Assembly: GCA_023263945.1 (NCBI GenBank)
Contig: JALQTW010000001.1
Location: forward strand, 117,741-181,740
Reading direction: 5' to 3'
Origin: Patescibacteria group bacterium
GTDB lineage: Bacteria > Patescibacteriota > Gracilibacteria > Peribacterales > Peribacteraceae
DNA: 64,000 bases
Part shown: piece by piece, positions 51,900 through 54,687 of the stretch
Numbering within the stretch: the first letter of the stretch is position 1
Layout of the letters: each line of letters starts with the position of its first letter
Translations under genes and position numbers: made by a program
The notes under the pieces: generated by a model
Told to the model about the DNA's origin: nothing
What the model saw: only the letters and a program-made list of their open reading frames with translations
Database searches by the model: none

Positions 51900-52003
51900 C
51901 CAGTGTGGCGGAGAGGCCGGCTCCGCTCCGCTTCGCCGAGCCTGATTCCTTTAAATGTGACAAGCCATCTCGGCGTAGTCCCGCGTAGCGGGACGAAGTC
52001 GGA

Positions 52004-52093
52004 TGGCGGAGAGGGGGGGATTCGAACCCCCGAGACCCTTGCAGGTCTACACGCTTTCCAAGCGTGCGCACTAGGCCACTATGCGACCTCTCC
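52004..52093 (-). tRNA. tRNA-Ser (anticodon GGA), long variable arm, CCA encoded
   Basis: Minus strand: acceptor GGAGAGG/CCTCTCC, anticodon stem CACGC/GCGTG with loop TTGGAAA, variable arm AGACCTGCAAGGGTCT, T arm GGGGG-TTCGAAT-CCCCC. Confidence 0.9.
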
Positions 52094-53852: not shown

Positions 53853-54008
53853 AATATATACATTTTAAACATATTTTGATTTTTAATCAATGGAGCCGCT
53901 GAAACTAGAAAAGTCCATTGCAACAAGTTTATGCTGCATAGCAGTAAGCTCTCTAGTTTGCTCCCAAGATGCATGCTCAAAGTGCTCAACTCAATAGAGT
54001 GGAAATGA

Positions 54009-54050
54009 TTGCTTTCCATGATAATTCCATATAGAATAATCATGTATTCT
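54009..54050 (+). promoter_or_regulatory. candidate toxin-antitoxin promoter (TTGCTT-17-TAGAAT) overlapped by an inverted repeat AGAATA-6-TATTCT
   Basis: -35 at 54009-54014, -10 at 54032-54037, inverted repeat at 54033-54038 / 54045-54050. This is the typical layout of an antitoxin operator. Confidence 0.4.
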
Positions 54051-54061
54051 CATCATTTTCT

Positions 54062-54346
54062 ATGCTTTCTGAATTCATCTCCATTACAAACCTCCAACGG
54101 CATCTGAAAAAAGTTTTTTATTCCAACAAACCTATCCATCTTGTCTTGAGCAATAATGAAGTGAGCGGCATTGTGTTTTCCAAAGAGGCCGCGGAAAAAC
54201 TCTTGGAATCTGGCGCACTGGATCAACTACGCGAAGAATTATGGGAACTGGACGATAAGGAGACGAGAGATCTTGTAATCCGCAGCAGAAAAGGAAAAAC
54301 GAAATCTGTTCCATTTCGTGATTTTGCGAAGGAATATGGCATATAA
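54062..54346 (+). CDS. type II antitoxin (Phd/YefM-like)
   Basis: 94 aa, immediately upstream of and overlapping the RelE-like gene by 11 nt. N-terminus: ISITNLQRHLKKVFYSNKPIHLVLSNNEVSGIVFS. Confidence 0.6.
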   Translation: MLSEFISITNLQRHLKKVFYSNKPIHLVLSNNEVSGIVFSKEAAEKLLESGALDQLREELWELDDKETRDLVIRSRKGKTKSVPFRDFAKEYGI

Positions 54347-54605
54347 TATTCTCATTGAAGATATCCGCGTATGGAAGAAAGATTGTGCTTCTATTCCACG
54401 CGATCGGCTGCAGCTCGTTGTTCGAAAAATCTACGCTTTAGAGAAAGATCCGTGGGCTAACAATGTTCAGGTAAAACAATTGAAGGAATATGGCATTGCA
54501 GATTTCCGTTTGCGTGTTGGTGACTATCGCGTGCTATTCAATAAAGATGAGGATACAAAAACAATCCAGCTTTTACGGCTGCTACATCGGTCGAAGTTAT
54601 ATTGA
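54336..54605 (+). CDS. type II toxin, RelE/ParE family
   Basis: ATG at 54336. 89 aa: MAYNILIEDIRVWKKD ... DFRLRVGDYRVLFNKDEDTKTIQLLRLLHRSKLY. Confidence 0.7.
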   Translation: MAYNILIEDIRVWKKDCASIPRDRLQLVVRKIYALEKDPWANNVQVKQLKEYGIADFRLRVGDYRVLFNKDEDTKTIQLLRLLHRSKLY

Positions 54606-54612
54606 CTCAATG

Positions 54613-54687
54613 TGGAGCCGCTGACGGGAATTGAACCCGTGACCCCCTCCTTACCATGGAGGTGCTCTACCCCTGAGCTACAGCGGC
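54613..54687 (-). tRNA. tRNA-Thr (anticodon GGU), CCA encoded
   Basis: Minus strand: acceptor GCCGCTG/CAGCGGC, D stem GCTC/GAGC, anticodon stem CCTCC/GGAGG with loop ATGGTAA, T arm ACGGG-TTCAATT-CCCGT. Confidence 0.9.

Follow-up and report, generated by a model that had tools for sequence, protein, structure and literature searches.

The stretch of DNA analysed here (the window) comprises 64,000 nucleotides (nt) from the genome of a bacterium of the Peribacteraceae, designated G000 (1.46 Mb, 47.7% GC). In this window, an intact tRNA-Thr(GGU) gene is followed by a small RelE-type toxin-antitoxin (TA) gene pair, and this pair lies between two direct copies of the 3' end of the tRNA. The present analysis concerns the origin of this arrangement, in which the following features were distinguished (positions refer to the window; aa, amino acids; ORF, open reading frame).

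53862-53890, minus strand: promoter of a neighbouring 118-aa ORF, the -35 box of which (TTGATT) begins at the distal repeat
53891-53902, minus strand: distal repeat copy, a displaced or duplicated tRNA 3' end, the outer flank of which is the ancestral tRNA-downstream flank
53903-54008, plus strand: unique non-coding segment of 106 nt that forms the promoter-side end of the insert; a weak hairpin lies beside the repeat
54009-54061, plus strand: promoter/operator of the cassette, with TTGCTT (54009-54014), a spacer of 17 nt and TAGAAT (54032-54037)
54062-54346, plus strand: predicted antitoxin of 94 aa, family unassigned (weak YafN-like N-terminus)
54336-54605, plus strand: predicted toxin of the RelE/ParE superfamily, 89 aa (PF05016, 25 bits against a cut-off of 23)
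54606-54612, plus strand: junction of 7 nt (CTCAATG) from the stop codon of the toxin gene to the tRNA 3' end
54613-54624, minus strand: proximal repeat copy, corresponding to tRNA positions 65-76 including CCA
54613-54687, minus strand: tRNA-Thr(GGU) gene (anticodon GGT), intact, with CCA encoded (ARAGORN; Rfam tRNA, 68.7 bits)

The sequence TGGAGCCGCTGA is the reverse complement of the last 12 nt of tRNA-Thr(GGU), which comprise the last base of the T stem, the 3' strand of the acceptor stem, the discriminator base and CCA. It was found at exactly two sites in the window, 53891-53902 and 54613-54624, which show a spacing of 722 nt and leave 710 bp between them (53903-54612). An original prediction, made from the letters of the window, had described a direct repeat of the tRNA 3' end including CCA, and the coordinates that it gave for both copies proved correct. 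The longer match that it reported was also present: TCAATGGAGCCGCTGA (53887-53902) and TCAATGTGGAGCCGCTGA (54607-54624) agree at 16 of 18 positions with a 2-nt indel (TCAA[TG]TGGAGCC...), and the TCAA(TG) of the junction may belong to a longer 16/18-nt duplication. The repeat terminates exactly at CCA. Three independent assemblies contain the identical locus, in one case on a 28-kb contig that spans it, so that it is not an assembly artefact. Exact-protein look-ups returned identical copies of the locus only.

To compare the site with that of a close relative, we used G001, the only genome of the same genus in the collection. The gene order around the tRNA in G001 is the same as in G000 (M50 peptidase, tRNA-Thr(GGT), NifU-like protein and SufS-like cysteine desulfurase), and there is no TA pair. 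The tRNA end is separated by 42 nt from the start of a 214-aa ORF, for which no homology was found to the 118-aa ORF behind the distal repeat in G000; no family was found for either of them. About 50 nt beside the tRNA end of G001 could be aligned with the flank of the distal repeat (score of 10 vs. -0.8±3.6 for shuffled sequences, p=0.001), whereas the flank of the proximal copy did not align with the tRNA flank of G001 (p=0.24). Thus, the comparison with an empty site, which had been proposed as a check of the prediction, revealed a tRNA without the cassette, the end of which is joined directly to sequence resembling the distal flank. No second copy of the 12-mer was found near the G001 tRNA, so this relative without the TA pair has not kept a downstream repeat. 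In addition, judged from its sequence and from its homologous position in G001, the promoter of the 118-aa ORF is the ancestral neighbour of the tRNA end and lies outside the insert. The alignment of the G001 flank and the -35 box abutting the distal copy together identify the distal copy as the former junction between the tRNA and its neighbour and the 710 bp as an insertion.

A search for further copies of the 12-mer, likewise proposed with the prediction, recovered two additional sites in the genome, neither of them at a tRNA gene; one is located within a 584-aa ORF and the other on contig C33 among short ORFs (<=89 aa). Because the 12-mer is not unique in the genome, the question of the repeat was put to all of the tRNAs. 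The terminal 11-mer of each of the 51 tRNAs was searched within ±60 kb on both strands and on both sides. Apart from paralogous tRNAs, copies were found only downstream and in the same orientation, at 10 of the 51 tRNAs, and the three control directions (upstream or on the other strand) gave zero matches. When the last 25-32 nt of the 44 tRNAs on contigs C11, C22 and C33 were used, about 10 strong matches were obtained downstream in the same orientation, each of which stopped at CCA, and the upstream and reverse-strand controls gave background levels only. The duplicate lies at +711 in the case of tRNA-Thr(GGU) and less than 100 nt downstream in the others, except for extra partial copies at tRNA-Ile(UAU). 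The confinement of tRNA-end copies to the downstream same strand makes a chance match very unlikely, and the repeat at tRNA-Thr(GGU) belongs to a systematic class rather than being a coincidence.

The 710-bp insert starts, on its promoter side, with the 106-nt segment, for which no homologue was found in 200 genomes of the family, in its own genome or in any of the fetched loci. No coding similarity was detected in this segment, no remnant of an integrase was detected in the whole 710 bp, Rfam contained no family for the spacer, and the fold z-score of the segment (-1.3) was not significant. The promoter-like match that follows within 54009-54061 (DNA fold z-score of the stretch, -1.9) is overlapped by a 10-nt inverted repeat formed by CATGATAATT (54018-54027) and AATAATCATG (54036-54045), and this layout of promoter and inverted repeat is kept upstream of the antitoxin in all 19 homologous loci.

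The antitoxin gene comes first and overlaps the toxin gene by 11 nt. A profile of 18 homologues of the toxin showed full-length matches to the RelE-family structures 1wmi (E=4.7e-6), 3bpq and 3g5o (E 5e-6 to 5e-5), which, together with the PF05016 match, supports the predicted RelE-type identity. The score of the toxin against TIGR02385 was under the cut-off, as it was for NCBIfam in general, and a search of wider genome contigs recovered only a distant relative in Dyadobacter. A terminator-like hairpin (54576-54593) is situated within the 3' end of the toxin gene. The description of the antitoxin as Phd-like was not confirmed: it showed a weak YafN match below the cut-off and no match in Pfam or PDB, and its AlphaFold2 model (predicted local distance difference test score, pLDDT, of 62) gave no significant fold match in Foldseek. 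In its antitoxin-first overlapping bicistron, its proteins of about 90 aa each, its palindromic operator over the promoter and its RelE-like toxin profile, the cassette resembles RelBE, YefM-YoeB and aRelE-aRelB. Unlike these systems, it possesses an antitoxin without a detectable family by sequence or fold and a toxin below the NCBIfam cut-offs. Of the neutralised toxicity and autorepression expected of such modules, only the palindromic operator can be seen in the sequence. We also observed an exact 15-nt repeat, GAAGGAATATGGCAT, at 54328-54342 and 54482-54496, which encodes KEYGI both at the C terminus of the antitoxin and inside the toxin.

A six-frame search with the antitoxin indicated that the TA pair is present in 21 of the 200 genomes of the family and in 15 of the 84 genera. 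The cassette is up to 84% identical in another genus, yet it is absent from the congener G001. In this patchy presence and in the variety of its insertion sites, the cassette behaves as a unit that moves between genomes; a cassette mobilised in trans had been one of the two possibilities considered in the original prediction. The copies that lie at tRNA ends and those that are flanked by direct repeats elsewhere are as follows.

G000, tRNA-Thr(GGU): 7 nt from the toxin stop codon to the tRNA end
G144 and a metagenome contig, tRNA-Thr(UGU): 6 nt from the toxin stop codon
G105, tRNA-Thr(CGU): 29 nt from the toxin stop codon, with a mini-hairpin
G043, tRNA-Arg(UCG): a duplicate of the tRNA end (13-17 nt) lies 11 nt from the toxin stop codon
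G083 (locus L069; also L088-L090): flanking repeat of ~70 nt, insert of ~670 bp
G137 (loci L077 and L098): flanking repeat of 96 nt (99% identical), insert of 669 bp
G201 (locus L078): flanking repeat of 32 nt (100% identical), insert of 689 bp

At four tRNA species, a distance of 6-29 nt separates the 3' end of the toxin gene from a tRNA 3' end or its duplicate (rough binomial p ~1e-10), and at further loci tRNA-Thr or tRNA-Arg genes are found within 250 nt of the cassette. In the copies outside tRNA genes, the flanking direct repeats are duplicated local sequence and are unrelated between sites; the ~70-nt target of G083 is single-copy, with contiguous flanks, in the congeners G088 and G086. 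The four repeat-flanked copies share no common terminal sequence and contain no inverted repeats. On the toxin side, the insert ends at most ~50 nt from the stop codon (0-11 nt at the tRNA-end and G083 junctions), and on the promoter side it ends about 0-100 nt upstream of the -35 box, where non-conserved DNA is found in the other copies too. The cassette does not qualify as an insertion sequence (IS) or a miniature inverted-repeat transposable element (MITE), since terminal inverted repeats are lacking and the duplications range from 12 to 96 nt rather than being of a fixed length. The idea that the targets are always hairpins was rejected, as the 96-nt target folds strongly (z = -6.2) and the 32-nt target does not fold at all. 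The locus L093/L094, in which a 90-nt repeat extends from the contig end to 16 nt before the antitoxin start codon, was not counted as a clean case.

Several loci that carry the cassette, or correspond to its sites, showed other rearrangements. In L067 of G183 (2064-2804), a 75-nt direct repeat, composed of a hairpin and the 3' end of tRNA-Thr(CGU) and 92% identical between copies, surrounds a DUF3592 ORF, and the TA cassette is located just beyond the outer copy, which looks like the tandem accretion of insertions at one tRNA end. In L088 (~690-800), two copies of GAGCTAAAGCGGCTTA, from the 5' end of tRNA-Thr(UGU), stand on either side of a palindromic hairpin, which shows that duplications also arise at tRNA 5' borders. 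The tRNA-Thr(UGU) site of the G083 cassette is rearranged in its congeners: G085 (L106) has the tRNA in inverted orientation with respect to the flank, ~1.2 kb of other DNA is present in G087 (L105), and a gene that by sequence appearance is SPFH/band-7-like is present in G089 (L108).

The explanation that we prefer, with a probability of roughly 0.62, is that the two 12-nt copies are the duplication generated by the insertion of a ~710-bp, promoter-to-stop RelE-type TA cassette behind the CCA of tRNA-Thr(GGU), and that this module, which has neither a recombinase nor defined ends, has spread horizontally in Peribacteria, entering intergenic DNA with a preference for tRNA 3' ends and with target duplications of variable length. 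We infer that the process began with a staggered break at the tRNA end, in which one cut was made at or a few nt past CCA and the other on the opposite strand, 12-16 nt inside the tRNA gene. Next, a linear DNA fragment bearing the TA pair, for example DNA that had been taken up, would have been captured at the break, and the single-stranded overhangs would then have been filled in. Insertion in this manner would move the tRNA and the promoter of the gene downstream apart and would keep both of them intact. The break itself could have been made by the small GIY-YIG nucleases located at tRNA genes of the genome. Once inserted, the module would stabilise itself, as an unstable antitoxin is predicted to repress its own palindromic operator and to neutralise a toxin that probably cleaves mRNA in a ribosome-dependent manner. 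Retro-transposition, with a template switch to the CCA end of the tRNA, was dropped because the promoter is part of the cassette, which in addition lies antisense to the tRNA.

As the original prediction had stated, no integrase ORF exists between the repeats, and none was found in the window near the locus. The genome-wide search for recombinases suggested alongside it was carried out for tyrosine recombinases, of which there are only two, with best matches of the XerD/XerC type, located 84 and 339 kb away from it; the search did not extend to serine recombinases. Four small GIY-YIG nucleases are encoded in the genome, and two of these genes are located directly behind tRNA genes. An array at C22:133317-133865 consists, in this order, of tRNA-Ile(UAU), two partial copies of this tRNA (77 nt each, without the 5' acceptor and the D arm), a GIY-YIG nuclease gene of ~85 aa and a third partial copy; another small GIY-YIG gene lies 130 nt behind tRNA-Cys (C11:409562-409771). 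The genome also encodes one RAYT-like Y1 (IS200-like) transposase of 143 aa (C33:3290-3921), which has its own 37-nt hairpin-forming direct repeats (…CCCGCGCAAAGGTATTTGCGCTCTGG…) on both sides. A 24-nt hairpin word, CAGAGCGCAAATACTTTTGCGCGG, which is related to the RAYT repeats by reverse complementarity, brackets a TPR-like gene of 441 aa (C11:402230-403686). Neither the two tyrosine recombinases nor the transposase or the GIY-YIG nucleases could be connected with the tRNA-Thr locus.

Among known processes, the closest to the one proposed here seems to be the 'insertion with long target duplication' of restriction-modification (R-M) systems, which Nobusato et al. 2000 are said to have described. 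These systems insert with target duplications that are long as well as variable, possess no mobility genes and do so by a mechanism that is unknown (Furuta, Abe and Kobayashi 2010, PMC2853133). Their repeats are single-copy at the empty site and often span gene ends, so that the neighbours stay intact, and a repeat of >30 bp was used as the criterion for a long target duplication (PMC2853133). The TA cassette shares with them its nature as a small addiction-type module without a mobility gene, repeats that are single-copy at the empty site (G000 vs. G001; G083 vs. G088/G086), a repeat length that varies by site, the absence of inverted repeats and the spanning of gene ends, and some of the R-M cases also involve tRNA sequence. 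However, the cargo here is a type II TA pair and so does not itself cut DNA, the repeat in the window is 12 nt (16-18 nt with the indel) and those of the related cassettes 32-96 nt, the bias to tRNA 3' ends is strong, and the host belongs to the candidate phyla radiation (CPR).

A number of observations weigh against insertion of a free-standing cassette with target duplication. No nuclease or recombinase is tied to the event at the tRNA-Thr locus, and 12 nt is below the >30 bp criterion for a long target duplication. A non-homologous gene follows the empty site in G001, so that only ~50 nt of flank backs the orthology of the two sites. The association with tRNA ends could partly reflect survivorship, as a compact genome offers few places that tolerate insertions. 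Among the tRNA-adjacent cassettes, the flanking duplicate persists only in the copy of G000; no distal tRNA duplicates were found at those of G105, G144 and G152, and the cassettes of G043 and G183 sit outside the bracket formed by the tRNA and its duplicate rather than inside it. Finally, the 106-nt segment beside the distal repeat is unexplained and could be the remnant of an earlier, separate insertion.

The rival explanation that survives best, improbable as we judge it to be, is a Campbell-type integration without an integrase, in which a circle, excised at another site through recombination of its flanking repeats and containing one tRNA-Thr 3' end, recombined with the conserved 3' end of tRNA-Thr(GGU) through short homology, the repeat being the crossover segment rather than a filled-in overhang. 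In agreement with this, the cassette is found, always in the same orientation, at three tRNA-Thr isoacceptors that share the 3' end GCGGCTCCA or at least GGCTCCA. The 32-96-nt repeats at other sites would suffice for RecA-mediated excision and re-integration, and the Kobayashi model for R-M systems includes amplification and release through such repeats. Nevertheless, 12 nt is very short for homologous recombination, the cassette also occurs at tRNA-Arg genes, the ends of which are unrelated, and the repeats outside tRNA genes copy local single-copy sequence, so the first insertion at each of these sites requires another mechanism.

TA modules are often the last survivors in decaying islands, and the cassette could be what later deletions left of a tyrosine-integrase element that had entered at the tRNA-Thr 3' end; we regard this as quite unlikely. 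Integration driven by an integrase usually leaves a displaced tRNA 3' fragment behind, and a direct repeat of the tRNA 3' end that stops at CCA is a standard signature of islands (PMC9897764). The locus resembles tRNA-integrated islands and prophages in its position at a tRNA 3' end, in the intact tRNA, in the displaced CCA-ending copy at the far side and in the existence of an empty site in a relative, and the two species of the genus differ in the interval from the M50 peptidase gene to the tRNA. It is unlike them in that neither the insert nor its vicinity contains an integrase, conserved core and arm sites are lacking, the targets elsewhere are unrelated and the insert is only 710 bp long. 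Moreover, a cassette of the same extent (669-710 bp) lies between unrelated local duplications in other genera, which an att-specific integrase cannot explain, and the toxin stop codon is only 7 nt from the tRNA, which leaves no room for arm sites on that side. Neither an integrase remnant in the 710 bp nor coding similarity in the 106-nt segment was found, and the tyrosine recombinases of the genome are Xer-like only. That integrase, common core and defined ends are all missing speaks against integrase-driven integration. The original prediction had interpreted the repeats as the attL/attR signature of site-specific integration; an insertion at the tRNA 3' end is real, but classical recombination at att sites is not supported, since the copies in different genera are flanked by unrelated duplications of 12, 32, ~70 and 96 nt without a shared core and the only tyrosine recombinases of G000 are Xer-like.

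Another rival explanation involves the small elements found behind other tRNAs. A family of 70-95-nt elements with two hairpins starts directly after the tRNA CCA, usually with an 11-21-nt duplicate of the tRNA 3' end behind it. Covarying base pairs were observed in both hairpins, and no Rfam family corresponds to these elements. A covariance model detected them in 44 of the 61 family genomes to which it was applied; of the 29 loci that were fetched, 22 have them abutting a tRNA CCA, and about half have an 11-21-nt duplicate. Their layout of tRNA end, insert and duplicate is that of the bracket at tRNA-Thr(GGU), which differs from these elements, similar to repetitive extragenic palindromes (REP/REPIN-like), in enclosing a gene cassette instead. 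In G000, they were located at the following positions.

Window 51906-52006: behind tRNA-Ser(GGA)
C11:448099-448172, C11:592859-592931 and C11:598697-598773
C11:708088-708182: behind a tRNA-Gln-like 3' end (…GCTGCCCAGCCA) that was not called as a tRNA and is probably a tRNA remnant
C22:236856-236926

With regard to the tRNAs of this assembly, those called on contigs C44 and C46 are mostly without an encoded CCA, and those of C46 and C57 form tight clusters at contig ends, unlike those on the large contigs; C44, C46 and C57 may stem from another organism in the bin.

Two separate events might thus be supposed, in which a small non-coding element first produced the duplicate, leaving the 106 nt as its remnant, and the TA cassette later landed between the tRNA and this element without a duplication of its own. 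About 10 tRNAs of the genome do have a duplicate 48-90 nt downstream with a small element between, the G043 cassette lies just outside such a bracket and the G183 cassette behind a duplicate and hairpin, which indicates that tandem accretion at tRNA ends does happen; furthermore, the homology between cassettes begins at ~54008, which places the 106 nt outside the conserved cassette. However, R1, the model of the palindromic elements, found nothing in 53880-54612 even with the filters off (cmsearch), although it finds the tRNA-Ser element at 74 bits. The 106 nt have neither relatives anywhere searched nor a significant fold, and in other copies of the cassette, too, the repeat is separated from the promoter by 0-100 nt of non-conserved DNA. 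We give two events little credence.

That the repeat arose by chance and has no mechanistic meaning, for which one might cite the 12-mer at two unrelated extra sites in the genome (one inside the 584-aa ORF) and the ease of picking coincidences out of a long window, is effectively refuted by the tRNA-wide control, in which no terminal 11-mer had a match within ±60 kb outside the downstream same strand, by the precise stop at CCA, by the homology of the flank to the empty site of G001 and by the parallel, repeat-flanked copies of the same cassette elsewhere.

TA modules are known to be mobile, but to our knowledge nearly all descriptions have them travelling on plasmids, phages, integrons or islands. 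If the two 12-nt copies are the target duplication of a cassette insertion, a bare 0.7-kb TA cassette appears to move by itself among the genera of an uncultured lineage, and a mode of insertion so far documented for R-M systems is extended to TA systems; the several pairs of empty and filled sites described here are available for study of the mechanism. In addition, duplicates of tRNA 3' ends around small elements form a pattern that may explain the gain of DNA in very small genomes with few classical mobile-element genes. It is conceivable, although we put it forward only as a tentative and rather doubtful proposal, that Peribacteria, and probably the CPR more widely, possess an undescribed, integrase-independent insertion pathway that acts at tRNA 3' ends and some intergenic sites with variable target duplication, and that also places two-hairpin elements behind about a quarter of the tRNAs, small GIY-YIG genes, single ORFs and promoter-to-stop cassettes. 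Should such a pathway exist, these minimal genomes would gain genes mainly through tRNA ends; a tRNA-directed GIY-YIG nuclease acting with host repair is a candidate for its enzyme.

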